Part shown: one piece after another, positions 1-18,570 of the stretch | How positions within the stretch are numbered: the stretch's first letter is position 1 | How the letters are laid out: every line of letters begins with the position of its first letter | Assembly: GCA_964498395.1 (NCBI GenBank) | Contig: CAZCHE010000011.1 | Coordinates: 18,787-82,786, forward strand | Direction: 5' to 3' | DNA: 64,000 nucleotides | Origin: an uncultured Parapedobacter sp. | GTDB lineage: Bacteria; Bacteroidota; Bacteroidia; Sphingobacteriales; Sphingobacteriaceae | Translations under genes and position numbers: made by a program | The notes under the pieces: generated by a model | Seen by the model: the letters and a program-made list of their open reading frames with translations, nothing else | What the model was told of the DNA's origin: nothing | Databases searched by the model: none

Positions 1-98
1 ACTTCAAAGGCAATTACTTCAACCAGTTTGCCGATAAGGTTTTCCGGCAGTTTGATGGTTAAACTGCTCTTCGTCGGTTTTACTATTGTGCGTATCAT
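1..98 (-). CDS. Partial small ORF (N-terminus only, runs off the window edge); antitoxin-like
   Basis: ATG at 98 on the minus strand, open to the window edge. It reads MIRTIVKPTKSSLTIKLPENLIGKLVEVIAFE and resembles small antitoxin-type proteins of Bacteroidota, from memory only. Confidence 0.25.
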   Translation of the reverse strand, partial: MIRTIVKPTKSSLTIKLPENLIGKLVEVIAFE

Positions 99-180
99 GA
101 TAAAGCAAACTCACGAAAAATTACTCGTATATAAAAGCCAGAATGCCGCTCTTACATAAGCTCTCGACTAATTATTCTGA

Positions 181-1530: not shown

Positions 1531-1733
1531 TACCTAAATTTTAATGCTGCTTTTAGTAACTAAAGTTGTTCCATATTTTTCTCCGAAAAAGGAGCGTTGC
1601 TAATCAAAAGTGATGCTATGACAACGAAAGCGAATTGAATTCCTCAACTCATTTCAAAAAGCCCAAGATACTACAATTGTATTAAATTAGCTAAATGGAG
1701 TTTAGCCACTAATCTAGCATTAAGGTCACTGAT

Positions 1734-3463: not shown

Positions 3464-3501
3464 TGGCTGTAAAAAAAGCGATGTCCGAATTCTTGGGGGC
3501 G

Positions 3502-3690
3502 TTACAATGCCAAGTATTTTCGTCTTAATTCTCTTGCAAGGCCCTCAAGATCTGGAAAGATAGATGATTCGCTAAACCCTGCCTTTTCAAGTTCCATTGA
3601 AATTTTGGAGCGGTATTTTCTATCTATTATTATTTGAACAATATTGTTATTCCTATGTCGCCGATACACGGAATCTATAGCCAGTTTTTA
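3502..3690 (-). pseudogene. C-terminal remnant of an FRG-domain protein
   Basis: The minus-strand frame has no usable start and reads KLAIDSVYRRHRNNNIVQIIIDRKYRSKISMELEKAGFSESSIFPDLEGLARELRRKYLAL*. The ending (I)FPDLEGLA..L is the characteristic C-terminus of FRG-domain proteins. Confidence 0.45.
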
Positions 3691-3907
3691 AAATAGTTGC
3701 TTAGGAGAAAAAGCGATAAAAATACATGCTTACTTCAGGCCTAGGTCGCATTGATTAGGTTAAAGGTATGAACTAATCCGTTGAAATCCAAAAGCGATGA
3801 TATCAATTATGCGTGACAGAATTCCTTAAGGGTTACGCTTGTTTTGAATAGACTGAACAGCTCCATCATTTGGCCGTAACTTTTTTTATCCGTATATTCG
3901 GACTAGG

Positions 3908-4150
3908 TTTAGGTAAAAAGCCCCCAATCCCCAAGTGGGCGACATTGTTTTCATCAACATGATTATTAATTTCTTGTCTGCTTTCATCGGCATTAATGAA
4001 TGCTTCGCAGTTTGTTCTTTAACGGCGACGAAGCTTGCCTGCCTACCGCAGGCAGGCATGAGCAGTTTACAGCAGTAGCTCATGCAGGTTCATAGGAGAC
4101 GTATAAAATACCCTAGTCTGTTTTTCATAAACGGGGGCGGTTATTTTTAT
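3908..4150 (+). repeat. Two-hairpin intergenic repeat, copy 1 (interrupted by an insertion at 3955-4093)
   Basis: 3908-3954 plus 4094-4150 align at about 80 percent identity to 5828-5935 (aggtaRaaagcccccWatccc...ggggcgacat..ttttcat|aggagaYg...ccYag..tgtttttcat...ggttatttt). Confidence 0.7.
3955..4093 (+). mobile_element. MITE-like ~135-bp insertion flanked by a TTCAT duplication
   Basis: This segment is absent from the uninterrupted repeat copy at 5828-5935. TTCAT occurs at 3950-3954 and 4089-4093. The right 60 bp (4030-4089) is a GC-rich palindromic element that recurs in inverted orientation at about 26586-26686. Confidence 0.55.
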
Positions 4151-4191
4151 GCTATTCTTGTAATCTTTCTGGTAAATTAGGTTCAGTGAAC

Positions 4192-4632
4192 TCATGCCAC
4201 CTCAATCTCCGGGTTTAATTTTATCAGCTCCGCAATAAAGCTTAACTTATCTTTCGGCGATATGACAACGCTGTCAAATCTGTTGTAAAAGATTTCGAGC
4301 CGATCCAGCGAAGGGGCAGGAGCGCTAATCGGGTTTTTGGTTTCCTTGATTTTCTTAATGGAGGCGATAGCTATTTTCTTCTTGTATAAAACGCCTGAGT
4401 GAACGACCAGTTCATCGCCATCAATGGCATAATAGGTAGCTAAGAATAAGTGAATGCAAAATGCCGTTACCATAAGCATGAATAAGGTGGCGCCCCATCC
4501 AGTAGCCACCGCTGCGGTATCCGTTTCCGTGATGGCCATATAGATCAGCGGCAGCGTGCTGCCCAACATGATTGCCACAACCGGAATGAGGAGTACCAGG
4601 TCTATTTTCGCTTTATATTTTTGCATGCGCAA
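4192..4632 (-). CDS. Membrane protein with bacterial PH (bPH/YdbS-like) domain
   Basis: Two N-terminal TM helices are followed by YYAIDGDELVVHSGVLYKKKIAIASIKKI...LDRLEIFY, which is typical of bPH-domain proteins. Confidence 0.55.
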   Translation of the reverse strand: MRMQKYKAKIDLVLLIPVVAIMLGSTLPLIYMAITETDTAAVATGWGATLFMLMVTAFCIHLFLATYYAIDGDELVVHSGVLYKKKIAIASIKKIKETKNPISAPAPSLDRLEIFYNRFDSVVISPKDKLSFIAELIKLNPEIEVA

Positions 4633-4846
4633 CTAAGATACAAAATAATTGACAGGAGGCTATTACTCACCACTTCATATTGGACGTCAAATTTTGAATA
4701 TTATTTCGGGAAACCCACTCAGAGCCGATTATAAGCGGATATAAACGTTTAAAAACGGCTACGATTTGCTAATAAAAATAGTTTTAATCATGTTTGCCCT
4801 GTTGATTGATACTAAAATAAATCACTGTGAAAAAAAGCGATTGATT

Positions 4847-5773
4847 ATGGCAAAAAAATACGACTATTTGTGGAAAGGTATCGTGGAAGACCTCTTTGAA
4901 TACCTGTTGCGCTTCCTGTACCCCACTGCCGATAAGGTCTTCGACCTAGCTAAAGGTGCAACTTTTTTGGATGCCGAGCTGGAACAGTTATTCCCTCCGG
5001 AAGGTGACGAATACACCCCAAAGGTAGTGGACAAACTGGTGAAGCTGTACAGGCGTGATGGCAGGGAAGAATGGGTGCTATTGCATATAGAGGTGCAGGG
5101 TCAATACAGGCAGGATTTTGCCAGACGGATGCTTACCTACTATACACGGATATTGGATAAGTATGACCGTCCCATCACGGCATATGCAATCCTCACGGAA
5201 GGAAGCAAGAAACCCCGGCCAAGCAGTTACGAGCGGTCGTTCCTTGGCACGAGATTGCTATACGAGTACAATATATTCAAGATTGCCGAGCAGGATGACG
5301 AACAGCTGTATGCTGACGGGAATCCGTTTGCTTTGGCGGTACTGGTTGCTAAGACCGCATTTATCGGGAAGCATATCGAAAACCGGCACGATCGCGACCT
5401 CGCGCTGCTGGAAACCAAAAGACGGCTGATGCAAGCCATGCTTGGTAGGGACATCCCAAAAGACAAAATCAGGTCATTGATTATCTTTCTGACCTACTAC
5501 GTGAATTTTGAATTCAAGGAAACAAACAGTATATTTGAAATGGAAAAACAACAACTGACAGGAGGCAGTGATACCATGGGTATTGAGCAATTATTAATTG
5601 AGACGGAAAAAAAGCGCAGCGAGCAAAGGGGCATAGAAAAAGGAAAAGCCGATGTGGTCGAAAATCTATTAATGAAGCTAGGCTTGTCCGATGAGCAAGC
5701 TGCCGATGTAGCCGAAGTATCCATCGATTTCGTCCGCAAGATTCGTGCGGATTTGGCGAAGAAAAAGAAATAA
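4847..5773 (+). CDS. Rpn-family recombination-promoting nuclease / putative transposase (PD-(D/E)xK, YhgA-like)
   Basis: YDYLWKGIVEDLFEYLLRF...VDKLVKLYRRDGREEWVLLHIEVQGQ...YYTRILDKYDRPITAYAILT matches the Rpn/PDDEXK-transposase-like pattern. ATG at 4847 is preferred over the longer ORF start at 4766. Confidence 0.65.
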   Translation: MAKKYDYLWKGIVEDLFEYLLRFLYPTADKVFDLAKGATFLDAELEQLFPPEGDEYTPKVVDKLVKLYRRDGREEWVLLHIEVQGQYRQDFARRMLTYYTRILDKYDRPITAYAILTEGSKKPRPSSYERSFLGTRLLYEYNIFKIAEQDDEQLYADGNPFALAVLVAKTAFIGKHIENRHDRDLALLETKRRLMQAMLGRDIPKDKIRSLIIFLTYYVNFEFKETNSIFEMEKQQLTGGSDTMGIEQLLIETEKKRSEQRGIEKGKADVVENLLMKLGLSDEQAADVAEVSIDFVRKIRADLAKKKK

Positions 5774-5800
5774 CCTCATAGAGTATATTAAGATAACGAA

Positions 5801-5827
5801 GTCACCGCATGGTGGCTTTTTTTATTT
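5801..5827 (+). terminator. Intrinsic terminator after the Rpn-like gene
   Basis: gtcacc-gcat-ggtggc stem followed by a T-run (ttttttta), 28 nt after the stop codon. Confidence 0.55.
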
Positions 5828-5935
5828 TCCTAATTAGGTAGAAAGCCCCCTATCCCAAAAAGGGGCGACATCTTTTCATAGGAGATGAATACCCCAGCTT
5901 GTTTTTCATGGCGAGCTGGGGTTATTTTTTGATTT
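5828..5935 (+). repeat. Two-hairpin intergenic repeat, copy 2 (intact)
   Basis: Homologous to 3908-3954 plus 4094-4150. It contains hairpins gcccc/ggggc and ccccagct/agctgggg (5892-5921), the latter followed by ttattttttg. Confidence 0.7.
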
Positions 5936-6071
5936 GTTTTAGCGAATGTAGGTTAATAGAAAAACAAACCCCGCGTAAGCGGGGATGTTTGAGACTTTTG
6001 AAATCCCAGACTTTAAGTCTGTTGTGTAGTGGTGCAAAGATATGTGTAGAGTCTTTACATTAAAAATCAAT

Positions 6072-6105
6072 ATAAAAAAATAACCCCGGTGTTGCAGTAC
6101 CGGGG
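6072..6105 (-). terminator. Intrinsic terminator downstream of the 471-aa gene
   Basis: On the minus strand a ccccggt/accgggg stem is followed by ttattttttta. A second minus-strand hairpin plus T-run lies at about 5965-5992. Confidence 0.5.
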
Positions 6106-6237
6106 TGCCCATTTCGCGGACTGGGCGATTTATAATTAAGTGCGAACCGTTATGCTGTAACGCTTATTGTTGTGTACGGATATAAGTGAAGGACTACATA
6201 ACGGTGTGTTTTTACACAATATCTATATCAATCACAA

Positions 6238-7653
6238 TTAAAATTTGACTAAACCTAACTCTTCCAATCGTATCGCCATAGCGCCTGGCGACACATTAAA
6301 AACTTCAGACAGGGAGTTGAAGTTAGCCCTAGCATAAGATTTTGTGGTAGCAATCTTTTTTGCGAATTCATAAATATTTCTACATTCCTTCCGCAAGTGA
6401 CTTGCAGAACGTTGGATTAGATTGAAGGCGGTCTCCTCATTTATGGTTAGTTCATTTGTTAGGAAAAGTTCATTAAAAACTCTGGTAACCTGCTTTCGTG
6501 GCATTAGAAAGTAGCTCGCGAATTTATCAGCTTGGCGCTCTATCGGTGCTCTGGGCATTTTCGGACTGCTACCGTCAATTGGTTTGTCCCGATGAATCAC
6601 AAGATCTTTGTGGAGGATGGCATGGCCTAATTCATGTGCAGCCGTGAAATTCCGTACAGATTGTGATTGACTCCCAGATATTAGTACAAGATGAGTGTCT
6701 TGATCAATGTAACCTGCTACCTCGGACATAACTCCATCCACTTCACTTATTCCTATTTCTTCAATGGTTAGAAAATCGTAGGATAATATTTCCTGGAAGA
6801 TTTTTTCGGGGTTTAGGATTGACAAGGCATCTTTAGCATCGAAATTTTTGCCCCATATTCTCTCGCTGTAATTCCATACTAACCGCTGAAATTGGGTGGC
6901 TATATCTTCTATCTCACTGTCTGATATGACTTCTTTTGATTTAGCGAGGCTAGTAAGAGCATGGATTTCCTGATATATATCTGCATTTTTATTGCTTTCA
7001 TTTTTTAATGATAATAAGTTATCATCTGATTTGCTATAGTATGGCTGCAATCGCTGGCTGAGGTTTGAAAGTTGGTTTTTTATCGTGATCGTCCAATCGT
7101 AGTCAGGCGCGCCAAATTGCTTTAGATTTAGATATATTATGGCAATGCAACTTTTCGTCGCGGAAATTACTCCATCGAAAGCGACAAAAGAATCACCTCT
7201 AACGGCACGATAGCCTTTGTCAAAGACCACCTCGCCAATTTCAATTAGCCTTAAGCATAATAGCGCGATTTTTAATGGGATTTCAGTTGAGAGTTTCGTT
7301 AGTTCCTGAGCATGTCTCTTAAGTTCATTTTTGAGAACGGGATCCTTCTCGATATCTCTTTCTTTCTTAATTGCAATGTTTTTATCGAAAACATCAGAAT
7401 CCTCTTCAAATAGGTCTTGGAGCTGAGGTAAGATTCTTAACACAATTTCTTCTTCAAACGCAAGAAACCGTTGTCGAACACCTTCGTAACCCTTTCTGCC
7501 TTTTTTCGTTGTCAACTTGATTACAGTAATAAGCAGATTTGCGGATAACATACCTTGTAAGGCAGCCGCACTTCCTGATCCTGGCGTAGGATTTCCAGCT
7601 CCAAATTCTTTTAAAAGTTCAGCTACTGAATATTCTAGTAATTTTTTTGCCAT
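6238..7653 (-). CDS. Fusion protein: N-terminal cyclodeaminase-like (FTCD_C-type) helical domain plus C-terminal ImmA/IrrE (M78, DUF955) zinc metallopeptidase
   Basis: The N-terminus ELLKEFGAGNPTPGSGSAAALQGMLSANLLITVIKLT matches the FTCD C-terminal cyclodeaminase signature (S..P.PGGGSAAAL.GAL). The C-terminus FTAAHELGHAILH...ERQADKFASYFLMP is the ImmA/IrrE HEXXH plus downstream acidic-motif pattern. Confidence 0.6.
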   Translation of the reverse strand: MAKKLLEYSVAELLKEFGAGNPTPGSGSAAALQGMLSANLLITVIKLTTKKGRKGYEGVRQRFLAFEEEIVLRILPQLQDLFEEDSDVFDKNIAIKKERDIEKDPVLKNELKRHAQELTKLSTEIPLKIALLCLRLIEIGEVVFDKGYRAVRGDSFVAFDGVISATKSCIAIIYLNLKQFGAPDYDWTITIKNQLSNLSQRLQPYYSKSDDNLLSLKNESNKNADIYQEIHALTSLAKSKEVISDSEIEDIATQFQRLVWNYSERIWGKNFDAKDALSILNPEKIFQEILSYDFLTIEEIGISEVDGVMSEVAGYIDQDTHLVLISGSQSQSVRNFTAAHELGHAILHKDLVIHRDKPIDGSSPKMPRAPIERQADKFASYFLMPRKQVTRVFNELFLTNELTINEETAFNLIQRSASHLRKECRNIYEFAKKIATTKSYARANFNSLSEVFNVSPGAMAIRLEELGLVKF

Positions 7654-7735
7654 ATTCGATTTGTATTATATCATCTAATTTACAGATGGTTATAAGACAA
7701 ATGTGCATTTTTTAAGTTGGGGATACTACTATTTG

Positions 7736-7762
7736 TTATCCACATGACGTTAATTATCCACA
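7736..7762. promoter_or_regulatory. Two perfect TTATCCACA 9-mers (DnaA-box consensus) in direct orientation
   Basis: TTATCCACA at 7736-7744 and 7754-7762, 18 bp start to start. They lie in the 168-bp spacer between the HNH gene end and the start of the cyclodeaminase-ImmA gene. Confidence 0.5.
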
Positions 7763-7821
7763 AAGATTTTTTAGGGTAACCTTTTGCGCATTTAGTCCGG
7801 CTAAACCTTAAAAAGAGATTG

Positions 7822-8535
7822 TTACAATTTAAATAATTGAAGTTGCCCCTCTATTTTTCTTCTAGTCACTTTATCAGAAGTAGGATATGGTATTTCTATT
7901 ATGCACCAAACTGTATTATGGATATGAAAAATCATTGTCAATTTGTTTCCCCTTCGCCAATCTCTAACTACTATATATGAAAATACATTGTTCTGTATAT
8001 GAGTCCATTTTTTCAATCTAAACTTTTCGCTATATGTTAACATAAATATTTCAGCAGGTCTTGTTTCTTCGACTGTAAAGGGATAAAACCCCACACAATT
8101 AAAAGTAGATAAGCTTGGCACTTTTTTGTATTTGTGATAATATAAGCCTAGGGCATTTTTTTCAATTACTTTTTTTATTCGATTTTTTTCAACTCTGAAA
8201 TATACTCTTCCATTTTCATCTTGAATTAATGAATTTTCTATTCGGTCGTTAAGTTTTTTTGAACGTTTCCGTGCTTTGTAAACGGAGCCTCCATACTCCT
8301 TCCGTGCCAAAAGGTTAGGGTTGTCTGATATTTCAACTAGTACATTTAAAAAATATTCTTCATCAAGAGAGAAAGATTGATTACAATCTTTACACGCAGG
8401 TATAGTTAGCAAATTTTGGGGATAAGGTTTTTCCAACAAATTTTTTGATGGGATATGGTCTTTAGAGTTTGCTGGTTTCCCGCAATAATAACAATTGAAT
8501 TCCTTTTTCAATTTTTCACAAAAATTTACTGCCAA
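7822..8535 (-). CDS. HNH-type endonuclease domain protein with an uncharacterised C-terminal domain (TTG start)
   Basis: CYYCGKPANSKDHIPSKNLL...IPACKDCNQSF is a CxxC...H...CxxCN HNH zinc-finger-type arrangement. The only start upstream of the motif is TTG at 8535, with an in-frame TGA 7 codons further upstream. Confidence 0.5.
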   Translation of the reverse strand: MAVNFCEKLKKEFNCYYCGKPANSKDHIPSKNLLEKPYPQNLLTIPACKDCNQSFSLDEEYFLNVLVEISDNPNLLARKEYGGSVYKARKRSKKLNDRIENSLIQDENGRVYFRVEKNRIKKVIEKNALGLYYHKYKKVPSLSTFNCVGFYPFTVEETRPAEIFMLTYSEKFRLKKWTHIQNNVFSYIVVRDWRRGNKLTMIFHIHNTVWCIIEIPYPTSDKVTRRKIEGQLQLFKL

Positions 8536-8670
8536 CTCGCACCGATGCCCTCCAGAACATCAGTGCGAGTGGTGTCAGAAAGATATATCCGGGCAATTCA
8601 TCCGAGTAATTCTCAAATTTGGGTTTTTCAAGCCATTATTTCTTAGAATGGGGAGACAACAGCAGGGTGT

Positions 8671-9129
8671 TTAATCGGCTTCTTCTTCCCTAAGACCGTC
8701 CAGAATGGACTTTGGGTCGAATATCGGAAGATAATATTTGTTTATAAAGGCTCCTGCTGTCTTGGCAATAATGATTCCCCGGGCTGAAGAAATAGATATT
8801 CCCAATAAAGTGGCCAGCACATTGTCCGGCAATTTGAAACTACGTTCTTTTATTTCGATGTTCTCTTTTAGGTTATTGATAATAAACTCAAACGCCCCTT
8901 TGTAGGTTAGCAGCTTGACTGGGGGATTTTGTCCGTCATTGTAATCGTAAAAGAAATGCAGGTGTACGATGAACGACTCTTTTTCGATATCATGCGAGAA
9001 GTTGACACCAACGCCTACTTCAAGATTATCTTCGCTAAATTTTTCGATAAACACGTCATCGGGCTCCTTAAATGTTACCTCTTCGGTTTTAACGTGGTGT
9101 AATTTGACATATATTGCAGGCTTGCCCAT
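8671..9129 (-). CDS. SecB-like chaperone (third component of a TAC system)
   Basis: The 152-aa protein is collinear by eye with E. coli SecB. [22 protein letters not shown] matches [32 protein letters not shown] matches [46 protein letters not shown] matches [33 protein letters not shown]. Confidence 0.5.
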   Translation of the reverse strand: [152 protein letters not shown]

Positions 9130-9133
9130 GATA

Positions 9134-9595
9134 TTAATTATAGCAGAACTCTATTGCGTTTTTTGAATGGCTCTCGGAGGGGTCAATCGCATAGCCTTTA
9201 AACTGTGCGAATTTGAAATTTTTAGAAATCTCCGTATCTAGTCTAGCATATTGTTGGTGGATGCCCATCACAATCCCCAAATAGGCCACGTCGGAAAACT
9301 TCGCTTCTTGTTCCAATCCAAAGCGATCTTCATTAATATGCCTACGAATATCTTTGTATGCGAGTATAGGCACTTTGTCAAAAGCCAAAGCTAATTCCAC
9401 CAACTTGCTTACCTTATGGTCAAAGTCACCGTTTAGGATTTGGGTGATATATCCTTTTGATACGCCAAGTTTTTCAGCAAGCTGCGTACGGTTGAGTTTG
9501 TTTTTGGCCATGTATTCGTTGATTAATTCAAACAAATCCAACTGGATTTTAGTCGTCCAATATTCCTTGCTCCTTAATAGTTCTTCCCTTTTCAT
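9134..9595 (-). CDS. higA: XRE-family HTH antitoxin (HigA-like) with a C-terminal extension
   Basis: LNRTQLAEKLGVSKGYITQILNG is an HTH_XRE motif. About 60 extra residues follow the HTH, and only a 4-nt gap separates it from the upstream toxin gene. Confidence 0.65.
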   Translation of the reverse strand: MKREELLRSKEYWTTKIQLDLFELINEYMAKNKLNRTQLAEKLGVSKGYITQILNGDFDHKVSKLVELALAFDKVPILAYKDIRRHINEDRFGLEQEAKFSDVAYLGIVMGIHQQYARLDTEISKNFKFAQFKGYAIDPSESHSKNAIEFCYN

Positions 9596-9599
9596 GTAT

Positions 9600-9989
9600 C
9601 TATTTGATATCTAAAACTTTAACTAATTCTTTCTTTATCGATCTGAATCGATTAATGTCTTTTTCTTGATTGTTCTTAAAGCCACACAACACGATTATTT
9701 TTCCTCCCTTTTGATGAACGGCATATATTCGCAAATGTTTGCTCTTAAACTCATATTCCTTTATGCCGTCTTTTACCCCTTTGAGTTCCCGAAATTTGGT
9801 TTGGGGCAACGGTTTGTTATTCGCTACAAACTCCATATAGGTGAGCATTGTCCTGAACTCACTTAAATAGGAAGTACCTGCAAGTTCCTCTTCAAATGTA
9901 TCAAGCTGTTTCACACCATTAATTTCCACTTGGCAAAATATCTGTTTGCCTTTTATGGCCTCGATTTCATGGAGTACAAATTTAGGCAT
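9600..9989 (-). CDS. higB: RelE/ParE-superfamily toxin (HigB / Gp49-like)
   Basis: FRELKGVKDGIKEYEFKSKHLRIYAVHQKGGKIIVLCGFKNNQEKD matches the Gp49/HigB pattern (..l.g..gl.E.r....yRi.y.....ivll.gf.K). Confidence 0.65.
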   Translation of the reverse strand: MPKFVLHEIEAIKGKQIFCQVEINGVKQLDTFEEELAGTSYLSEFRTMLTYMEFVANNKPLPQTKFRELKGVKDGIKEYEFKSKHLRIYAVHQKGGKIIVLCGFKNNQEKDINRFRSIKKELVKVLDIK

Positions 9990-10049
9990 AATTTGTTTAG
10001 TTGTAGCTAAACTTTCGATTTTTACAATTTGCTTACTTTATTGCAGTGT

Positions 10050-11009
10050 TTAAAATGGTAAATCATCGTCATCAGAGTATACAACGTTTTCTGCTGAATA
10101 TTTAGCCCAGTCATCGTTCCAGTCTGTTTTTCGATAAAATTTTAGCTTCCCATCTTCGTCAAAAATATTGCTATTAATGGATAGCAAATAGACTTTGTTA
10201 TTCTGTGTTCTTTTAAATTCCTGGATATCTTCAAACGGTAGTGAGTCGCTTTCATAACCATAAGCTTTCATAAATGCGGCTAAATCCTCCAAAGCCTCCA
10301 CATAGAAATTATATCTGATATTCAAGGACGATTTTATAAACTCGGTAAGAGGGTGTGTTACCATAAGGATTCTGTTAATTTCTTCGGCTTGATCCTTATT
10401 CTCAGCACTTAGATAATTTACTAGCTTGTTCAACGTTTGTGCTGTTTTCTCTAATCCTTTTATAAGATTCACTTCTTGAACCCTAGATTGCTCCTGTAGA
10501 AATCTTTGGAATAAACCAGCCAATTGCTCTTTCAGATATTTAGTGATGTCTGAGACGGTATCGAACCCTTTGATGTTGTTATTGACACTTAAGGTCTTAA
10601 TATCTTCAATGAAAGTGTAAATCCTGTTGTCATCGACATATCGATAAGTAACATCGGCATCTTTGTTTAACAAATACGTTTCATATTCAGACAAGACATG
10701 GCTTTCGATGAATATATATACTTGTTTATTAGTTTCTAAAGCGGCCTTTATTTCAGCTTGGGATACAGAAGAGTCATGTTTCTTTGATTCAGAGCCATAC
10801 CTTCCACCAATGATGGCAACCAATATGTCTACACTCTCAATCTCTTTATAGCAATAAGCTTCAAGCGCATCGTCCTTTCCGTAGGGTATATCTCCCTCTT
10901 CATTTCTTACAGGTTCGTAGCCTAATTGATCCAAAAATAAATCAAGGTCAGCCCTCGTCTGTTTTAAGTCGTAAAAAGTTGAGCTAATAAATACTCTTGG
11001 TTTAGCCAT
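10050..11009 (-). CDS. DUF4062 domain protein (TIR-like/nucleoside deoxyribosyltransferase-like N-terminal fold) with an unknown C-terminal half
   Basis: The N-terminus PRVFISSTFYDLKQTRADLDLFLDQLGYEPV...VDILVAIIGGRYG is the DUF4062 signature. Confidence 0.6.
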   Translation of the reverse strand: MAKPRVFISSTFYDLKQTRADLDLFLDQLGYEPVRNEEGDIPYGKDDALEAYCYKEIESVDILVAIIGGRYGSESKKHDSSVSQAEIKAALETNKQVYIFIESHVLSEYETYLLNKDADVTYRYVDDNRIYTFIEDIKTLSVNNNIKGFDTVSDITKYLKEQLAGLFQRFLQEQSRVQEVNLIKGLEKTAQTLNKLVNYLSAENKDQAEEINRILMVTHPLTEFIKSSLNIRYNFYVEALEDLAAFMKAYGYESDSLPFEDIQEFKRTQNNKVYLLSINSNIFDEDGKLKFYRKTDWNDDWAKYSAENVVYSDDDDLPF

Positions 11010-11276
11010 TTCAAATTAATCTACTTATCTATTACTCTTTAACTCTTTCATCAAAGATACAATTTTTAGCATTGTTGGTAGATGTTTATTTTGAAATACG
11101 AATCCATTTTTCTACACAGTAAGGTTAAAAGTTGATAAGTTCTTATTTGCGAAACACTACGATTTCCGTAGTAAATCTCTAACAAAGACTAAAAACCTAG
11201 GCTATACCTACCAGATCCCGGCTTATAACCATTGTCAAATGCGAGACGGATGCGCTATGTTGGGGTAGAAGAGTAG

Positions 11277-12647
11277 TCATAGCTCGTCTATAACCTTATT
11301 AGCCAAATCGTTTAAAAAAGTTATAGGGTCTTTAGTCCTATTACCATCTTTGTAAAACAAAAGATCCATCAATTTTTTATTATCCATTATTTCGTCAACC
11401 AACTGTACGAAATAAGACAGATTATCGTTTAGAGCTTGTTTATTTTTATTTGTAATTTGTGGGTAATTCGTTGGATTTAAATTTACATAATAGCTATGCA
11501 TGTGAAATTGCCGAACAAAAAGAAGCGCTGCATATTTACTTATCCAATATTTAATATTGCCATCTGCACCGACCCCTTCCAAGTCGGGAAAAGGAAATTG
11601 AAAGGAAATGACTGGAATATTATAATCGTAAGGATCCCAGAACCACAAAAAAGCTTCGAATACCTCATCCATGGTTGTCGGCAATAATTTATACCTTGGT
11701 GGATATGACATCGTATAGTTAAATATGGTTCTGATTAGAGAGTATTCATTACTGTAAAGCAGCAATCCGCCCAACGCATAATGAAATTCGAAGAATATTC
11801 TTCTCTCTAGTTCTCTGCTTTTAACCTCTTTCTCATTTATGCATTTGTTTTGTTCATCGAATTCTTGTGAAAGCTGGGAAAGATGTGGGTCAATATATTG
11901 AAAGGCAATTTTCCAATACAATAAAACTAAATCAGGACGCTTTCGACTTAAAGCTAATGTCAATCCTTCCCAAAGCACTCTGTATGTAGTTTTGCTTATT
12001 TTATGATAACTATCCCCTAACAACCATTCTCCCCCAAAAACCATATACTGAAGATTAACATTATTATATTTGGGCTGATTGGAAATTAAGAACTGTAAAT
12101 CATATATCATACGATATAAAAGTTCATCATATACGAGTTCCTCATGTTTCTTGATATTGTTGGATTTTCTACAGTCTTTGAATAGATTCGTGAACCAACC
12201 AAGCAATTCGTTGCAGACAAAGCTAGAATCATGCTTAACCCCGTAATATAATAAATCTCTTAACTCAGAGAATAGTAGCTCGGATTTTGAGCGATTCAGC
12301 AAATATGACTTCAATTTACCCGGACTGTAGTAACTGAATATTGCTTCAGCAAAAAGCAAGAAAGAAAAAACCGTTACAATAGAGCTTAGAAGCAAACTCC
12401 AAATAACACTGTGAACAACATTTACACTGAAGCCAAAAACATTTCTTAATGAATATATAGCTATTATTGTTAATGCAAACCACAAGCTATATCGAAAGAA
12501 CTTCCATGCCCATTCTTTTTCAAAGAGATTTCTTATGGCTTCAGAAGAATACTTGTCGTCAATTCTGGCAATAACTTGTATAGATATTGGATATGCTATA
12601 CCCGTCAATGCGATAATAATAGGAATACAAATCTCAGGTATGGTCAT
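11277..12647 (-). CDS. Multi-pass membrane protein (3-4 N-terminal TM helices) with a ~350-aa cytoplasmic domain of unknown function
   Basis: Hydrophobic segments ICIPIIIALTGIAYPISIQVIA, LWFALTIIAIYSL and VIWSLLLSSIVTVFSFLLFAEAIF. I do not recognise any family for the remainder. Confidence 0.5.
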   Translation of the reverse strand: MTIPEICIPIIIALTGIAYPISIQVIARIDDKYSSEAIRNLFEKEWAWKFFRYSLWFALTIIAIYSLRNVFGFSVNVVHSVIWSLLLSSIVTVFSFLLFAEAIFSYYSPGKLKSYLLNRSKSELLFSELRDLLYYGVKHDSSFVCNELLGWFTNLFKDCRKSNNIKKHEELVYDELLYRMIYDLQFLISNQPKYNNVNLQYMVFGGEWLLGDSYHKISKTTYRVLWEGLTLALSRKRPDLVLLYWKIAFQYIDPHLSQLSQEFDEQNKCINEKEVKSRELERRIFFEFHYALGGLLLYSNEYSLIRTIFNYTMSYPPRYKLLPTTMDEVFEAFLWFWDPYDYNIPVISFQFPFPDLEGVGADGNIKYWISKYAALLFVRQFHMHSYYVNLNPTNYPQITNKNKQALNDNLSYFVQLVDEIMDNKKLMDLLFYKDGNRTKDPITFLNDLANKVIDEL

Positions 12648-12690
12648 TGAAATAATTTCATGATGAATAGAATCGCCGAACTAAAAAAAC

Positions 12691-13242
12691 TTATCTCAAC
12701 CTATACAAATACACCGAACCATTACCAAATTTATCGGCTCTTTGAAGAACGCCTTTTAAGTAAAGACGTCTAAGTTCTCTCGACAACTCTTGACTATCGA
12801 GGTCTCGTTTATATTGCTTAAGGCTGTATTCGGCAATTTCGCCAACGGTATGCCCTTCATCTGAAATAAATGAATCGGATAGCAATACATTACGGACAAA
12901 ACTAGCAACGCTATACTCACTTCTTCTATTGATAAAGAACTTTGCATTTTTTTGGTTTTCTTCATAGAACTTTTGGATGGTTGGAATTTTAAGCGGCGCT
13001 TTTAGAGCGATTGCCTTATTCATATATAGCCTTGCAATCTCGATTCCAAAGAAGTCAGCAATTTTCTTTGCCAACTTTGGAGAAATATTAGCTGCTCCCC
13101 TTTCAATCATGAGCGTGTAACTGATAGAAATTGATAGCGCAAAAGTTAGTCCTTCAATTGTCAAGCCCGCTTTAACCCTTAGGTGTTTAACGTTTTTACC
13201 AACTATAATTGGTACGTTTTCATTTCTTTCTGATACATCCAT
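12691..13242 (-). CDS. XRE-family HTH transcriptional regulator with a C-terminal winged-helix-like domain
   Basis: VKHLRVKAGLTIEGLTFALSISISYTLMIERGAANISPKLAKKIADFFG is an HTH_XRE motif. It lies 43 bp upstream of the membrane-protein gene on the same strand. Confidence 0.6.
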   Translation of the reverse strand: MDVSERNENVPIIVGKNVKHLRVKAGLTIEGLTFALSISISYTLMIERGAANISPKLAKKIADFFGIEIARLYMNKAIALKAPLKIPTIQKFYEENQKNAKFFINRRSEYSVASFVRNVLLSDSFISDEGHTVGEIAEYSLKQYKRDLDSQELSRELRRLYLKGVLQRADKFGNGSVYLYRLR

Positions 13243-13459
13243 TTACAAATGGACAATCAAATTTGTGTTCATTTTAAAGAATATTGTTTGTTTTTTTGAA
13301 AACACTTTTTTATCTTAGTCCCCATAAAACAAAGTAATTAGATATAGAGAAAATTTAACAGTATAGTTAAGAACAGTATTAACGAACCCTCGTAACAGAA
13401 ATCCGCTAAATTTCATCCTACGAGTGTGAGTATTGCGCCAAAGTCCTATCTTTGGATAC

Positions 13460-13632
13460 CTTATTTCCTAGGGTAGGGTTGGCGCTTGCTTATTCTTTGT
13501 AGGATTATTTGGTTCTTCGGAATCGATAAGGCTGAAAGCTGACCCTAGGCAGCAAGTAAGCCGAGGCCCTTAGCGGAGCCTCTGTTGCAAAGATAAGTAG
13601 GTAGCCAGCCCCCCTCTTTGAGGGTTTTTGTA
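13460..13632 (+). ncRNA. Candidate structured small RNA (family not recognised)
   Basis: A GC-richer patch in AT-rich spacer. It has long-range pairing cctagggt (13467-13474) with accctagg (13542-13549), a GGUUC-UUCG-GAAUC tetraloop hairpin (13511-13524), a gaggc/gcctc stem, and a short ccctc/gaggg stem plus T5 at 13612-13629. Confidence 0.2.
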
Positions 13633-13867
13633 AAGTTATCTATTTGGTTCGTTACTAACCGTAGCGAACAATGCAACTACAGAAAATAACTACCGGAATT
13701 AAATCCATCTCGACTTATCCAAATAGGGGGGAAGATGGTTTTGTGGCATCTAAACCGTGGGAAATCTCTACTGCAAACCTTCATAAAAACATCATCAAAG
13801 TGCCAGTTTGATTGGTGTAAGAAACCTGAATAAATTCCATTTTTCTTACACCTAAAATCAAACAACA

Positions 13868-15349
13868 ATGAAGCAAAAAATACGCTTAGGGGATAACTAT
13901 GCCCTGTTATATCGGTTGTCTGCCTACTGGCGCGACCAACTATCGGAGATATTCCGAAAACACAAACGAAAACCATCCAGTCGGAGGCGGTTTCATACCA
14001 AGCCAAAGAACGGGAGGCCGTCATTAGCTTCCCTTAAAGAAAAATCATGTGTGCAGACCCCTGCGAAGGTCCCGGCCCTCCCCGGGCTGGGCCTCGCAAT
14101 GGGGATAATGGCATTTGCATTGTCTGCTTTAAACATCCAGCTGCAAGCGCAGGATACTATAAAGCCCTTGCAAATCGGTGATACCATACCCGAATACGTC
14201 TGGCACTTGCCGCTACAGGTGGTAAACCATCCGGAAGGCAAGGAAACCATTACGCTCAATGACTATCGGGGCAAGCTGATTATACTGGATTTTTGGGCCA
14301 CGTGGTGTGGGAGTTGCATAAAGGCGTTTCCGCTTGTGGATTCCTTGGTACTATTACACCCTGAAATGCAGGTAGTGAAGGTGACGAAGGAAAACCTCGC
14401 CTCGTCACAAATTGAGTGGACATCTGTTATAAACGGCCACCCATTGGCGGAGGTATTCCCTTATCGGATAATTCCGCATTATGTATGGATAAATTCGGCG
14501 GGCGAGCTCCATGCGTTTTCAAAAACCGAACAACTTACATCATCCAACATCATCGACGCGCTAAACAATGAATCGCCAAATTTTACCGTCGTCAAGGATC
14601 TAAACGTCAAAATCGATAAGCCACTATTCCTTACAGAGGATTTCCAATCGGAAGGGCTGCAACATTATGCTGTGCTGTATAAAGGCAAATACGACGGGTT
14701 GGGAAGTGTGAGCCTATTCCGTAAGTCAGGCGATAAACTTACTGGGAGGACATTGGCGAACCGCCCACTGTATGACCTATATACCACTGTCGCCAGAGGT
14801 TTGTTGGAAAAGGAAGGACAGGCATTTGGTTTAAACCGAATCGTAACTGAGGTTAATGATAGTACAGGGCTCGCTATCCAACGGTCTTCAGTGACCCCTG
14901 ATAACCTGTACTCATACGACATCAGCGTTGCCCCTGAAAACGCGGGCCAATTGTTTGAGATTATGCTGGATGATCTCAACAGGCACACGCAATACCATGG
15001 CACAATCGAATGTCGTGTGCTGGATTGTTTTGTGTTGAAATTAACGGGAGATGAAGACAAGCTGGCCAGTAAAGGTGGTCCTGCCAGTTCAACGTTGAGG
15101 GTGAATACACCCATCTCGCTTAACAACTATCCGCTGCGTTACCTGGCTATTTTTCTGAATTCTTATAGCCAATTGCCGCATATTGTGCTGAATGAAACTG
15201 GGTATGAAGACCCTGTTGATATCCAACTGCAGCAGTTTACAACCGTAGACGATTTCAATAAACAGCTCAAAAAGTATGGGCTAGCCTTAGAAAAAGCCAG
15301 CCGATCAATCCCCATGTTCATCATCCGAGACAAATTACCTAACCGTTAA
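13868..15349 (+). CDS. TlpA-like thiol-disulfide oxidoreductase fused to a TIGR03435/DUF3738-like C-terminal domain (start uncertain; alternative ATG at 14099)
   Basis: LIILDFWATWCGSCIKAFP is a thioredoxin-fold CxxC motif. The C-terminus VLNETGYEDPVDIQL...LKKYGLALEKASRSIPMFIIRD resembles the TIGR03435 end pattern. Confidence 0.7.
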   Translation: MKQKIRLGDNYALLYRLSAYWRDQLSEIFRKHKRKPSSRRRFHTKPKNGRPSLASLKEKSCVQTPAKVPALPGLGLAMGIMAFALSALNIQLQAQDTIKPLQIGDTIPEYVWHLPLQVVNHPEGKETITLNDYRGKLIILDFWATWCGSCIKAFPLVDSLVLLHPEMQVVKVTKENLASSQIEWTSVINGHPLAEVFPYRIIPHYVWINSAGELHAFSKTEQLTSSNIIDALNNESPNFTVVKDLNVKIDKPLFLTEDFQSEGLQHYAVLYKGKYDGLGSVSLFRKSGDKLTGRTLANRPLYDLYTTVARGLLEKEGQAFGLNRIVTEVNDSTGLAIQRSSVTPDNLYSYDISVAPENAGQLFEIMLDDLNRHTQYHGTIECRVLDCFVLKLTGDEDKLASKGGPASSTLRVNTPISLNNYPLRYLAIFLNSYSQLPHIVLNETGYEDPVDIQLQQFTTVDDFNKQLKKYGLALEKASRSIPMFIIRDKLPNR

Positions 15350-15369
15350 CCAATACCTTAAAATCAATT

Positions 15370-18300
15370 ATGAAACACCTTTTATTCACGATGCTTATCA
15401 TAAGCATTATTTCCATATCATATGGCCAACAGCAAATTTCCGGAACTGTGCGGTCGGCTTCTGAAGACGTACCACTGGAAGGCGCCTCCGTCAAGCTGCC
15501 CAATGGCAGGGAAGTGACCACTGATCGTAACGGAAAATTTTTGCTTGCCGCCCCAGCTGGCAGTTTTTCGCTGATAGTCAGCTATGTCGGATACATCACC
15601 GATACGCTGGCGATAAACCTACCGATAACCGCACCGTTAGTCATTAGTCTGGATCCTTCCACAGAATTTATGCGTGAGGTAGTGGTCTCTACGGGTTACC
15701 AGAGCCTTCCGCGTGAGCGCAGCACCGGTTCGTTTTCACATATCGACAACGAGACATTCAACCAACAGGTCACCACAGATGTTATGAGTCGTTTGGAGGC
15801 AGTAGCGGGGGCGTATGTGGTGGACCGTAGGGGGGAACGGGCAGCCCGTCCGTTGATTCGTGGATTGGGAACATTGAATGGTCCAACTGAACCATTGGTC
15901 ATTCTGGATAACTTTCCCTATGACGGTGATATCAATAATATCAATCCCAATGACGTGGAAGATATCAGTATCCTCAAAGATGCTGCGGCCGCTTCAATAT
16001 GGGGTGCTCGTGCCGCAAACGGTGTAATTGTCATCCGTACTAAGCAGGGCAATTATAATCAATCGTTAAAAATCGGGGTGCAAGCAAATACCACCATCGA
16101 AAATAAGGCTAATCTGGGCTATATCCCCCAAATGTCTTCATCTGATTTCATCGATGTTGAAAGATTTCTCTATCAACACGGATTTTATACTGGAAGAATT
16201 AACCAAAATACCCGGCCAGCACTATCTCCTGTGGTTGAATTGCTCATCAAGCGTGAAGACGCAAACCCTGCGGAGATGGCCGCCATTGACGCCCAAATGG
16301 ATGGCTGGCGTGGGCTGGATGTGCGAAACGATTTCAAGCGGTATGTCTATCAACCATCAGTCAATCAGCAATATGCATTGAGCGTTGAAGGCGGTGCTGA
16401 CCGATTGGCATGGACAGCCACGGCAGGTTTTGACCATAACAAGGACAATCTCGATGGAGGCTACCAACGACTCAATCTGCGGTTGCAAAACCGCTACAAA
16501 CCAGTAGATTGGCTGGAGATTTCTACAGGACTTCGGTATACGTTGAGCCAGACCAAGAGGGGTAGGGAAGGGTTTGGTAATGTCACAGTTATCAATAGCC
16601 TATATCCATATGCTCAATTTGCCGATGAATACGGCAATCCATTGCCACTGACAAAAAATTTGAGGCAGGCGTTTATTGATGAAACAAACGGCGCTGGGCA
16701 GCTGCTTGATTGGAGCTATTACCCACTCGATGATTATAAGCACACCGACAACACCACTGCACTCAGTGACCTATTGGCCACGACCCAGCTAAATTTCAGG
16801 ATTACCCATTGGCTGGGTGCCGAGGTCGAATACCAATATGAACGGCAGGATAACAATGGCAGGGTATTACATGGAATTGGGAGTTTCTTTACACGCGACC
16901 TCATTAACCGTTACTCGCAAATAGACGGTTCGGGCGACGTTCAACGGCATATCCCTGTGGGGGAGATTCTGGACTTGTCAAACAACCAACTGAATTCCCA
17001 CCAAGCTAGGGGCAAACTAAATGTAAACCACGGTTGGGGAAACCACCAAATCACGGCCATAGGGGGCAGCGAAATCCGCCATGCAGGTACCCAGAGCAAT
17101 CGGCATCGCACATATGGGTACAACGATGATATTCTCACGTTTGGCGCGGTCGACTATCTGAACCCTTATCCCCTTTATCATAGCGGATCACCGACATTCA
17201 TTCCGAGGGCGGATGGGTTTGGCAGGCAGACCACCCGCTTTATCTCCATGTTTGCCAATGGAGCCTATGAGTATGATAGCCGATATACGTTATCCATCAG
17301 TGGCAGGCGTGATGCCTCCAACCTGTTCGGGCTGGCAACTAATGACCAGTGGAATCTGTTCTGGTCACTGGGTGGAGCATGGAATGTTTCGAATGAATCT
17401 TTCTATAATGTGTCTTGGCTGCAGAATTTAAGGCTGCGCGCCACGTATGGTAAATCGGGAAATATCGATCCCTCAATGGTGGCAACAACGACCATGGCTT
17501 ATGTAACGATGGATCCATATACCTTAACGCCGTGGGCAAGGTTTGCCAACTATTATAATCCTGACCTAACATGGGAAACCTCCGCCATGACCAATATTGG
17601 GATAGACTTCGGCCTATTTGGTAGAAGGATTAATGGGTCTATTGAATATTACCATAAGAGCGGTACAGACTTATTCGGGAGGGCAGTTGTGGATTACACG
17701 GGAGGTGTGGGGAGAACGATTACCAAAAATGCCAGCAGTATGGTCGGCAACGGGATTGATCTTGAGCTCAATAGCGTCAACATTGATGCAGCAGTGAAGT
17801 GGCAGAGCAATATAAGGTTTAGCCATTATCAAGACAAAGTGACGAGTAACATCCCTGCCACGACAACCGTGAGCTCAATCGTGGCGGCCGATGGCGGTAC
17901 AACTGGAGTACTCGCTGTAGAAGGCAAACCCGTAAATGCGCTTTTTTCATACCGGTGGGCAGGCCTTGACAGCGAAACAGGAGATCCATTGGGTTATCTA
18001 AACGGAGAACTAAGCAACGATTATAACGCATTACGTGGAAACACCCAAACCATTAACGATATAGTTTACCACGGTTCGACCATTCCCACTTGGTTTGGCT
18101 CACTGGGTAATTCAGTTTCCTATAAACAGTTTTCACTCGCCTTCAGCCTAGTTTATAAATTCGGCCACTATTATAGGCGGCCATCTGTAAGATATTGGGA
18201 TTTGTTCAATAACTGGAATTTTGCACACAGTGATTTTTCTAGGCGATGGCAACAGCCCGGTGATGAACTCACCACCAATGTACCTTCAATGGGGTATCCG

Positions 18301-18570
18301 GCCAATAGCTCACGTGACCTTTTCTATACAGGTTCGGAAGTGCTCGTAGAACGTGGTGATCACATCCGTCTACAGTTTTTACAAGTATCTTATAGCTTGC
18401 CTTTCTTTAGAAAGACACGCATTAGCAGCGCTCAAATTTTTTTCAACGCAAACAATGTAGGAGTGCTGTGGCAAGCAAATAAATCGGGATTAGATCCTGA
18501 TTTTGTTGGCTTAAACACATTGGTCGTACCCACATCGTATTCCTTTGGAATACGTTTTAGCATGAATTAA
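15370..18570 (+). CDS. susC: SusC/RagA-family TonB-linked outer membrane protein
   Basis: Signal peptide, carboxypeptidase-regulatory-like domain (ISGTVRSASEDVPLEGASVKL), plug (VVVSTGYQSLPRERSTGSF; NGPTEPLVILDNFPYDGDINNINPNDVEDISILKDAAAASIWGARAANGVIVIRTK), 1066 aa, C-terminal aromatic-rich end. Confidence 0.92.
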   Translation: MKHLLFTMLIISIISISYGQQQISGTVRSASEDVPLEGASVKLPNGREVTTDRNGKFLLAAPAGSFSLIVSYVGYITDTLAINLPITAPLVISLDPSTEFMREVVVSTGYQSLPRERSTGSFSHIDNETFNQQVTTDVMSRLEAVAGAYVVDRRGERAARPLIRGLGTLNGPTEPLVILDNFPYDGDINNINPNDVEDISILKDAAAASIWGARAANGVIVIRTKQGNYNQSLKIGVQANTTIENKANLGYIPQMSSSDFIDVERFLYQHGFYTGRINQNTRPALSPVVELLIKREDANPAEMAAIDAQMDGWRGLDVRNDFKRYVYQPSVNQQYALSVEGGADRLAWTATAGFDHNKDNLDGGYQRLNLRLQNRYKPVDWLEISTGLRYTLSQTKRGREGFGNVTVINSLYPYAQFADEYGNPLPLTKNLRQAFIDETNGAGQLLDWSYYPLDDYKHTDNTTALSDLLATTQLNFRITHWLGAEVEYQYERQDNNGRVLHGIGSFFTRDLINRYSQIDGSGDVQRHIPVGEILDLSNNQLNSHQARGKLNVNHGWGNHQITAIGGSEIRHAGTQSNRHRTYGYNDDILTFGAVDYLNPYPLYHSGSPTFIPRADGFGRQTTRFISMFANGAYEYDSRYTLSISGRRDASNLFGLATNDQWNLFWSLGGAWNVSNESFYNVSWLQNLRLRATYGKSGNIDPSMVATTTMAYVTMDPYTLTPWARFANYYNPDLTWETSAMTNIGIDFGLFGRRINGSIEYYHKSGTDLFGRAVVDYTGGVGRTITKNASSMVGNGIDLELNSVNIDAAVKWQSNIRFSHYQDKVTSNIPATTTVSSIVAADGGTTGVLAVEGKPVNALFSYRWAGLDSETGDPLGYLNGELSNDYNALRGNTQTINDIVYHGSTIPTWFGSLGNSVSYKQFSLAFSLVYKFGHYYRRPSVRYWDLFNNWNFAHSDFSRRWQQPGDELTTNVPSMGYPANSSRDLFYTGSEVLVERGDHIRLQFLQVSYSLPFFRKTRISSAQIFFNANNVGVLWQANKSGLDPDFVGLNTLVVPTSYSFGIRFSMN

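Follow-up and report, generated by a model that had tools for sequence, protein, structure and literature searches.

DUF4062 is a Toll/interleukin-1 receptor (TIR)-like NAD+ hydrolase (NADase) domain, and single proteins in which it is fused to an auxiliary (AUX) region have been described as anti-phage abortive-infection systems (bioRxiv 10.64898/2026.05.01.722283; 10.64898/2026.06.25.731849). The tested Swarozyc proteins all come from Gammaproteobacteria, and one of them, KpSwz of Klebsiella pneumoniae, is triggered by the phage portal and requires E97 (bioRxiv 10.64898/2026.05.01.722283). The Evangelion protein Eva01, encoded on the S. aureus plasmid pMW2, requires F11, E87, W162, and its AUX region; phage escape mutations fall in RecA/Sak/UvsX-like genes, and the protein binds substrates with single-stranded DNA (ssDNA) overhangs (bioRxiv 10.64898/2026.06.25.731849). 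Here we describe a 319-amino-acid (aa) DUF4062 protein, DUF4062-320, and two genes next to it in a 64,000-nucleotide (nt) stretch of DNA from an uncultured Parapedobacter sp. (contig CAZCHE010000011.1), the whole of which we call the window. An earlier note on this DNA had read three genes here as one module of unknown function, made up of an XRE-type regulator, a membrane protein, and a TIR-like protein. An open reading frame (ORF) check recovered all three as it had described them, all on the minus strand: XRE-183 (positions 12691-13242; 183 aa), TM-456 (11277-12647; 456 aa), and DUF4062-320 (10050-11009). The three-part explanation that we favor, and that taken as a whole we consider fairly probable, is that these units are independent of one another in function and happen to be neighbors in this genome alone, DUF4062-320 being a solitary DUF4062+AUX protein and a candidate single-gene NADase-type abortive-infection system.

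DUF4062-320 compared with the Swarozyc and Evangelion proteins

The DUF4062 assignment made in the earlier note holds in a Pfam profile search (PF13271; E = 1.4e-17; 64 bits against a cutoff of 24.7; residues 5 to 89). So does the TIR-like or nucleoside deoxyribosyltransferase-like fold that it had named, as the N-terminal domain of the AlphaFold2 (AF2) model matched TIR domains, BcmB, nucleoside 2-deoxyribosyltransferases, and DNPH1 in Foldseek searches. KpSwz (PDB 10wc) matched residues 5 to 104 with an E value of 7e-4, and Eva01 matched residues 3 to 101 with an hhalign probability of 92.7. Approximately 170 residues lie beyond this core and comprise a stalk, an alpha/beta AUX region, and a tail. 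In the AF2 model, the stalk is a helix of residues 152 to 200 (10410-10556, minus strand) that links the TIR-like core to the AUX region, with low predicted local distance difference test (pLDDT) scores at residues 181 to 204. The AUX region (residues 206 to 311; 10077-10394, minus strand) is modeled with helices at residues 208 to 217, 220 to 229, and 240 to 249 and strands at residues 262 to 269, 272 to 279, and 302 to 308 (pLDDT, ~64 to 84), and with this order of elements, three helices followed by beta strands, the fold may be winged-helix-like.

In its organization DUF4062-320 resembles the Swarozyc proteins, which are likewise the products of single genes, carry an N-terminal DUF4062 domain, a helical stalk, and a C-terminal AUX region, occur in defense islands, and are of similar size (326 to 331 aa compared with 319 aa). 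The AUX region of KpSwz has been described as helix-turn-helix (HTH)/winged, with which the modeled helix and strand order of DUF4062-320 would be compatible. However, the two AUX sequences are unrelated, E97 of KpSwz is replaced by Gln84 in DUF4062-320, and KpSwz-type proteins lack an acidic LPF tail; furthermore, the portal is the trigger of KpSwz, and there is no sign of a portal trigger in the DUF4062-320 lineage. Eva01 shares the single-gene arrangement, a DUF4062 core with a C-terminal AUX region, a similar length (324 aa), and a location on mobile DNA (L140:3863-4837), and its essential Glu87 lies opposite Glu86 of DUF4062-320. Here too the AUX regions are unrelated. Eva01 keeps E85, E87, and a Q-W-E motif, whereas the DUF4062-320 family has Q84 and x-L-E; Eva01 lacks the tail described below, which resembles that of the ssDNA-binding protein SSB; and Eva01 is found on Firmicutes plasmids, whereas the DUF4062-320 family is found on Bacteroidota chromosomes.

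Residues 4 to 101 were the only part that hhalign aligned with a full-length Swarozyc-type protein encoded on a Vibrio plasmid (L145:1486-2481), and no AUX sequence similarity to either Eva01 or this Vibrio protein was detected in the hhalign comparisons, in which the core alone was aligned. The AUX comparison covered Eva01 and the one Swarozyc-type protein. DUF4062-320 thus has the fused C-terminal AUX region of a DUF4062+AUX protein and, across 51 loci, no obligatory partner gene, but its AUX region is unrelated in sequence to that of Eva01 or of the Swarozyc-type protein.

The family is large, with 2,316 matches in a collection clustered at 90% identity; at 50% identity, those with E ≤ 1e-30 form 474 clusters, and most members are ~320 aa long and align over their full length. 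It is also patchy: the peptide patterns used recovered 51 loci in 185,579 species genomes, in variable contexts. A search of viral contigs revealed no relative at its level of sensitivity. In two Acinetobacter phage records there is a 30%-identical match to residues 1 to 200. We consider DUF4062-320 to be a self-contained DUF4062+AUX system of the Swarozyc and Evangelion kind that belongs to a separate, Bacteroidota-centered lineage. The suggestion in the earlier note of an abortive-infection-type effector gains support from the two preprints on phage-activated DUF4062+AUX NADases, and its statement that the DUF4062 gene matches no known system has been overtaken by the same two preprints, which date from 2026. 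The gene is thereby placed in a defense family known only from these preprints, and the large Bacteroidota-centered lineage lies outside the set of proteins tested in them.

Glutamates of the active-site helix

The canonical motif of the active-site helix is S-Y-T-E1-x-E2-Y. Both glutamates are present in Eva01 (E85 and E87) and in the Vibrio Swarozyc-type protein, and KpSwz has E1 only (E97). In DUF4062-320 the motif reads S81-V-S-Q84-A-E86-I-K-A-A90 (10740-10769, minus strand), with Q84 opposite KpSwz E97 and E86 opposite Eva01 E87, and the window family accordingly lacks E1 and keeps E2 (S-V-S-Q84-A-E86). When 150 cluster representatives of the DUF4062-320 clade were aligned with hmmalign, position 86 was Glu in 143 of 145 and A90 was invariant, while position 84 was Gln in 87, Met in 19, Asn in 14, and Glu in only 5 of 143. 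The position that is essential as E87 in Eva01 is thus occupied by a glutamate, E86, and the clade, lacking E1, must use E2 (Glu86) if it is an enzyme. This comparison exposes a discrepancy between the two preprints: the glutamates that they call catalytic are in fact different residues, KpSwz E97 being E1 and Eva01 E87 being E2. Natural DUF4062 lineages keep one or the other.

By homology to KpSwz and Eva01, DUF4062-320 would be held in an auto-inhibited state as an oligomer. A phage component would engage the AUX region or the tail, and the TIR-like domains would then rearrange and hydrolyze NAD+, with Glu86 as the putative catalytic residue. The infected cell would die or arrest before phage release.

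Several observations weigh against such a role. E82 of the KpSwz chain (native E97) aligns with the invariant Gln84, a position that is mostly Gln, Met, or Asn in the wider clade, so that the glutamate of the KpSwz catalytic position is missing. The Q/W/E motif of helix alpha-B is also not preserved: in a manual reading of the alignment, Q50-W51-E52 of Eva01 lies opposite A48-L49-E50, a correspondence that is provisional in its exact register because the hmmalign column labels are shifted here by one residue. Among 133 sequences of the clade, 112 have Leu at L49 and likewise 112 have Glu at E50, and no Trp is listed at the three motif columns. Because of the Gln at the KpSwz E97 position and the loss of the Trp of the Q/W/E motif, DUF4062-320 need not be active as an NADase; of four human DUF4062 proteins, three are inactive as NADases in vitro. 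Furthermore, the mean column identity of the family is 72%, which is unusual for a sensor that coevolves with phages, and the AF2 model of DUF4062-320 is of moderate quality (pLDDT, 68).

An SSB-like C-terminal tip

DUF4062-320 ends in S-D-D-D-D-L-P-F (10053-10076, minus strand), a tail identical to the C-terminal tip of SSB (SSB-Ct). SSB-Ct, which is DDDIPF in E. coli and DDDLPF in S. aureus and in B. subtilis SsbA, is the conserved tip that recruits SSB partners (PMC5872125, PMC5531588). An acidic run followed by [LIVFM]PF ends 118 of 120 close relatives, 54 of them with DDDLPF. Under a strict criterion the tail is present in 57 of 118 full-length cluster representatives, and by our count ~15 more have weaker versions. 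Among 1,926 ORFs in 1.5 Mb, 40 have such an ending, and all 40 are family members, including copies from Acidobacteriota and Longimicrobiales. In the ending that is most frequent in the family, the final six residues, DDDLPF, are identical to those of SSB and stand at the extreme C terminus; the rest of DUF4062-320 is no SSB with an oligonucleotide/oligosaccharide-binding (OB) fold. In the model, pLDDT falls below 50 at residues 312 to 315, and the acidic low-confidence stretch at the C terminus is probably flexible. The tail is absent from Eva01 and from the Vibrio Swarozyc-type protein, and SSB is not mentioned in either preprint.

The lineage-specific DDDDLPF tail could be a bait to which phage proteins of replication or recombination bind in place of SSB, their usual docking site. 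The phage recombinase Sak4, for example, requires the last six residues of SSB. The location of Eva01 escape mutations in recombination genes and the binding of Eva01 to ssDNA overhangs fit the replication-linked trigger proposed here for the tail. In its most specific form, the idea is that of an integrated decoy, in which a copy of the SSB tip is bound by SSB-docking phage proteins (Sak4-, UvsX-, or Erf-like recombinases, helicases, or nucleases), so that the protein clusters on SSB-like assemblies and the TIR-like NADase is switched on. We put this forward tentatively, as a rather unlikely proposal, but one that supplies a concrete and cheap trigger hypothesis. If true, it would give bacteria an equivalent of the integrated decoys known from plant nucleotide-binding leucine-rich repeat (NLR) proteins and would provide a direct molecular explanation of how phages escape DUF4062 systems through recombinase mutations. 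That the tail instead folds back in cis on a basic, DNA-binding AUX surface as an auto-inhibitory element is less likely, as the AUX region is net acidic. In five family members (P0318, P0323, P0359, P0393, and P0394) the DDDLPF tail is replaced by a (Y/F)DPFAD(E/S) ending such as DPFADE, which suggests a second type of docking peptide.

The tail also bears on a different view of the protein, namely that it is no NADase defense effector and is a conserved accessory factor of DNA metabolism that joins the SSB interactome through its tail, with a domain that binds or processes nucleotides or nucleosides or is inert. Such a role would be in keeping with an ending that equals SSB-Ct, with extreme conservation across phyla, with Gln in place of the KpSwz catalytic Glu and the lost Trp of Q/W/E, with a fold that also matches nucleoside 2-deoxyribosyltransferases, DNPH1, and BcmB, and with the inactivity of most human DUF4062 proteins as NADases. 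It sits poorly, however, with a family that is rare and patchy, has variable neighborhoods, sometimes lies by integrases, and here lies in a low-GC island. Moreover, the equivalent of Eva01 E87, mutation of which abolishes defense, is nearly invariant, and the overall architecture is that of proven defense proteins. We regard an accessory factor of this kind as unlikely and continue to favor a DUF4062+AUX defense protein.

Association of the three genes

Homologs of the three genes are not syntenic elsewhere, an outcome that the earlier note had itself named as refuting its proposal: across 139 related loci there was no co-occurrence, and the XRE/membrane protein/TIR-like module is not supported. 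The loci comprised the 51 genome loci of the DUF4062 family, 84 loci of the TM-456 family, for which 80 metagenome loci were collected, and 4 XRE-183 loci, and they were searched by tblastn with all eight window proteins as queries and with profile hidden Markov models (HMMs) of the three families, each of which recovered its own family in control searches. No TM-456 or XRE-183 homolog was found within ~8 kb in any of the 51 DUF4062-family loci, no DUF4062 or XRE-183 homolog in any of the 84 TM-family loci, and no DUF4062-320 or TM-456 homolog in any of the 4 XRE-183 loci. Neither of the two large families had a recurrent neighbor, and neighbor clusters arose only from near-identical contigs or housekeeping genes.

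The limits of DNA similarity give the same picture of separate cassettes. In blastn comparisons, loci L001 and L002 are similar to the window only over 11266-12733 (87.5% identity), a TM-456 cassette (minus strand) that consists of the coding sequence with 86 nt upstream and 11 nt downstream, and loci L006 to L008 are similar only over 10050-11009, which is exactly the DUF4062-320 coding sequence (89% identity). The closest relative of TM-456 (P0002; 85% identical) precedes an MmeI-type restriction-modification gene in L001, a locus that lacks a DUF4062 or XRE-183 gene. The closest relative of DUF4062-320 (P0121; 94% identical) lies 53 nt after an 80-aa HTH gene of its own in L006; the 500-aa gene that follows is unrelated, and the locus holds no TM gene. 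A remnant of that 80-aa HTH gene was sought upstream of the window DUF4062 gene and discounted, as there is no DNA similarity beyond the coding sequence. The earlier note was right that the genes are adjacent on one strand and that TM-456 starts 43 nt past the XRE-183 stop codon, but it understated the 268-nt gap between TM-456 and the DUF4062 gene (11010-11276, minus strand), which shows no similarity to DNA upstream of the 94%-identical homolog in L006 to L008. Both larger genes are under purifying selection (ratio of nonsynonymous to synonymous substitution rates [dN/dS] relative to the closest relatives, 0.15 for TM-456 and 0.04 for DUF4062-320) and are therefore live.

Pattern matching placed a -7-like box, TATCTTTG, in the gap at 11052-11059, from which 43 nt remain to the start codon of the DUF4062 gene. 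Another, TAAATTTG, lies at 12726-12733 (minus strand) inside the 3' end of XRE-183, exactly where the block shared with L001/L002 has its first base; on weak evidence, it may be a candidate promoter element of the Bacteroidota -7 type from which the TM cassette is transcribed. The TAnnTTTG motif was not enriched in the window (49 found and 48 expected), and a sigma-70 scan, the model for which is wrong for Bacteroidota, gave 13 sites compared with 14.9 expected. No direct or inverted repeats of note flank the cassettes.

Two points weigh against the independence of the three genes. The locus sets are samples obtained via peptide patterns, with flanks of 7 to 8 kb, and no census; and XRE-183 and TM-456, 43 nt apart on the same strand, are compatible with cotranscription in this genome. 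A joint system would be a single regulated two-effector abortive-infection operon of XRE-183, TM-456, and DUF4062-320, in which the TIR-like enzyme signals to, or acts with, the membrane effector. Combinations of membrane and TIR proteins do occur in other defense systems, and the shared strand, the adjacency, and the short XRE-TM gap speak for such an operon. Yet there is no co-occurrence in the 139 loci, homology blocks end at gene borders, the closest relatives of TM-456 (85% identical) and DUF4062-320 (94% identical) each have wholly different neighbors, the 268-nt gap intervenes, and published DUF4062+AUX proteins act as single genes. A single operon is in our view very improbable and close to refuted.

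A smaller unit is conceivable, in which XRE-183 is the repressor of a toxic membrane effector, TM-456, in the manner of a regulator-controlled abortive-infection gene, and the DUF4062 gene is separate. Besides the 43-nt same-strand gap, this draws on L001, where ~42 nt from the end of an XRE-183-type gene persist and the gene as such is absent (junction at L001 2735). This piece looks like a recombination scar, and since the L001/L002 block thus runs 42 nt into the XRE-183-type 3' end, the XRE/TM junction must be older than the split of those sequences; another small HTH_3 gene lies upstream in L001. Against this, a full-length XRE-183 homolog was found in none of 85 TM-family loci with a clean profile, XRE-183 homologs precede unrelated cargo in all four of their loci, and other short-form TM genes (L003 and L004) have no adjoining HTH gene. 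We therefore consider a two-gene unit decidedly unlikely and retain the explanation of three independent genes. The apparent module is then the product of cassettes that came to lie side by side in a hotspot by chance, a false lead that can be set aside, and cloning of the three genes as one unit is unwarranted.

TM-456 and a family of membrane-anchored proteins

The earlier note had described 3 to 4 transmembrane helices and a large unrecognized cytoplasmic domain in the 456-aa protein. The AF2 model (pLDDT, 89.4; predicted TM-score [pTM], 0.83) bears out three helices, at residues 3 to 33, 46 to 66, and 75 to 107 (overall aa 3-107; 12327-12641, minus strand), two of which are strongly hydrophobic by the Kyte-Doolittle scale, and a cytoplasmic domain that remains unmatched, but not a fourth helix. 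The cytoplasmic domain is predicted to be all-alpha. No family match was found in Pfam, PADLOC, NCBIfam, or PHROGs, or in the PDB by sequence, and Foldseek found no fold match in the PDB (best E, 0.68) or BFVD (best E, 0.58), the best hits being generic alpha-solenoids. Taken together, 28 family members (TM-456 and 27 relatives, including P0111) had no Pfam match at E ≤ 1 and no relevant PADLOC match, and NCBIfam and PHROGs likewise gave nothing for them. The statement that TM-456 matches no known system consequently still stands after both family and fold searches. A PDB profile match of TM-456 to 7rdr, a designed repeat protein, was dismissed as a compositional artifact, no stretch of it passing alone. 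Database names attached to two homologs ("TctB family" and "phage abortive infection protein") were reproduced by no scan, and an AbiC/putAbiC identity, taken from the UniRef name of P0111, was rejected because the Pfam and PADLOC models were unmatched.

TM-456 has 188 homologs, mostly of 740 to 775 aa, and aligns with the first ~485 residues of these. It lacks the ~290-aa C-terminal domain of the long homologs (P0006, P0022, and P0111; residues ~485 to 760), which has no Pfam match. The 319-aa protein is not this domain in detached form, as BLASTP found no similarity (best E, 0.8 and 2.5). Short forms of ~450 aa are an established subfamily, and the others lie in a conjugative element beside RteC or among housekeeping genes, with no DUF4062 gene nearby. 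We read TM-456 as the short form of a standalone family of ~750-aa membrane-anchored all-alpha proteins that are carried as single-gene cargo of defense islands and conjugative elements.

Among 140 neighboring genes at loci of the family are those for restriction enzymes (HaeIII, HpaII, and EcoRV) and type I, II, and III methyltransferases; other defense genes, namely, four GmrSD, two prokaryotic Argonautes (pAgo), PD-T4-6 kinases, MADS components, Mrr, and nSTAND3; and the mobility-related genes TraG/VirD4, YWFCY, RteC, and ParB. This defense context is a descriptive gene list and speaks through guilt by association. The family is almost absent from viral contigs, with two IMG/VR records, viral or proviral (L146 and L147), encoding relatives of 28 to 31% identity. 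The conserved residues (W226, W245, N271, LGG292-294, PPxYxLLP316-323, and R379) do not look catalytic, and by the company that the genes keep, the action of TM-456 is probably membrane linked and nonenzymatic. Our best guess from this context is that it would act at the membrane as an abortive-infection or exclusion protein, and it is a possibility that the ~750-aa family constitutes a new single-gene membrane defense system. Confidently folded, unmatched, and found in the company of restriction, pAgo, and conjugation genes, the family stands as a candidate.

XRE-183 at the edge of a defense hotspot

The XRE assignment of the regulator is borne out by a Pfam match to HTH_3 (E = 6.8e-7; residues 19 to 70), with the HTH at approximately residues 15 to 76 (13015-13200, minus strand). 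The C-terminal 100 aa gave no family match, which leaves the winged-helix part of the earlier label without support. XRE-183 has 40 homologs, and those that are named belong to Sphingobacteriales genera. In the window, a conserved flank on the plus strand (13868-18570) consists, by Pfam, of a thioredoxin/AhpC-like gene (13868-15349) and a gene for a SusC-like TonB-dependent receptor (15370-18570). XRE-183 lies divergently beside a SusC-like gene in all four XRE-183 loci, and in three of these, as in the window, a thioredoxin-like gene intervenes. L141 to L143 and L006 have the thioredoxin-like/SusC-like arrangement of the window, and L144 has the SusC-like gene with no thioredoxin-like gene on record. 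L006 is a site of the same kind in which a different 80-aa HTH gene takes the place of XRE-183. Compared with the window, identities are 57 to 72% for XRE-183, 36 to 49% for the SusC-like protein in four of five loci and 25 to 29% in L144, and 30 to 34% for the thioredoxin-like protein. XRE-183 (57 to 72%) is thus better conserved than the flanking core genes (25 to 49%).

What lies downstream of XRE-183 differs in each of the four loci: unknowns with DUF2513; DUF2806, NERD, and S_4TM; MACPF, HNH_4, and HATPase; and CBASS preceded by an HTH-M78 gene. Whatever the cargo, XRE-183 keeps the C-terminal motif DKFGNGSVYLY. In the window, GC content is low (34 to 39%) from approximately position 1 to 13,700 and rises to 47 to 55% in the thioredoxin-like and SusC-like genes; at the conserved flank (13868-18570) the step is from 34 to 38% up to 47 to 49%. 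Beside the SusC-like/thioredoxin-like pair begins a defense-island hotspot of low GC content, of which this region forms the proximal end, and XRE-183 is a conserved border gene that marks the edge of this variable hotspot. Judging by its position, XRE-183 would most likely repress or otherwise regulate its neighbors in general, whichever they are, like BrxR or C-proteins. It resembles these in being a small HTH regulator at the upstream edge of variable defense cargo and in its weak PADLOC matches to the "Control_protein" and capH models, but it has no WYL or other recognizable sensor domain, and the likeness is one of position. With XRE-183 and the SusC-like gene as its marker, usually with a thioredoxin-like gene in between, the hotspot offers a place to look for new systems in Sphingobacteriales-type genomes.

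Other genes of the island

The view of the locus as a defense island is supported by the PADLOC and Pfam matches in the window and by the defense cargo at related loci. As an integration-site clue, tRNA, tmRNA, and Rfam families were searched for within the window, and none was found. The DUF4062 gene ends 60 nt upstream of a RelE/Gp49-like gene (9600-9989), the distance given in the earlier note. That gene, which encodes 129 aa and is weakly matched, belongs to a tight minus-strand triad with 4-nt gaps (8671-9989), together with genes for an XRE HTH protein of 153 aa and for a protein of 152 aa with a match (E = 9e-20) to PDC-M64C, a component of a PADLOC candidate system. The triad looks like a toxin-antitoxin-like pair with a third, defense-associated gene.

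An HNH-like gene is also among the defense-like genes just downstream of the three-gene stretch. Further along, at 6238-7653 (minus strand), a 471-aa fusion combines an N-terminal FTCD_C/methenyl-tetrahydrofolate cyclohydrolase-like domain (E = 2.7e-24) with a C-terminal ImmA/IrrE M78 peptidase (E = 3.2e-15; PADLOC capP, E = 2.4e-20), with no capH-type HTH partner adjoining it. At 1734-3463 (plus strand), a 275-aa gene without a family match overlaps a HipA_2-like kinase gene (E = 4.8e-11). Beside these, at 181-1530 (minus strand), lies the gene for a 449-aa protein that consists of DUF7149 (E = 2.8e-80) and DUF7814 (E = 2.2e-71) only and may represent a truncated larger enzyme of which the N-terminal part is left.

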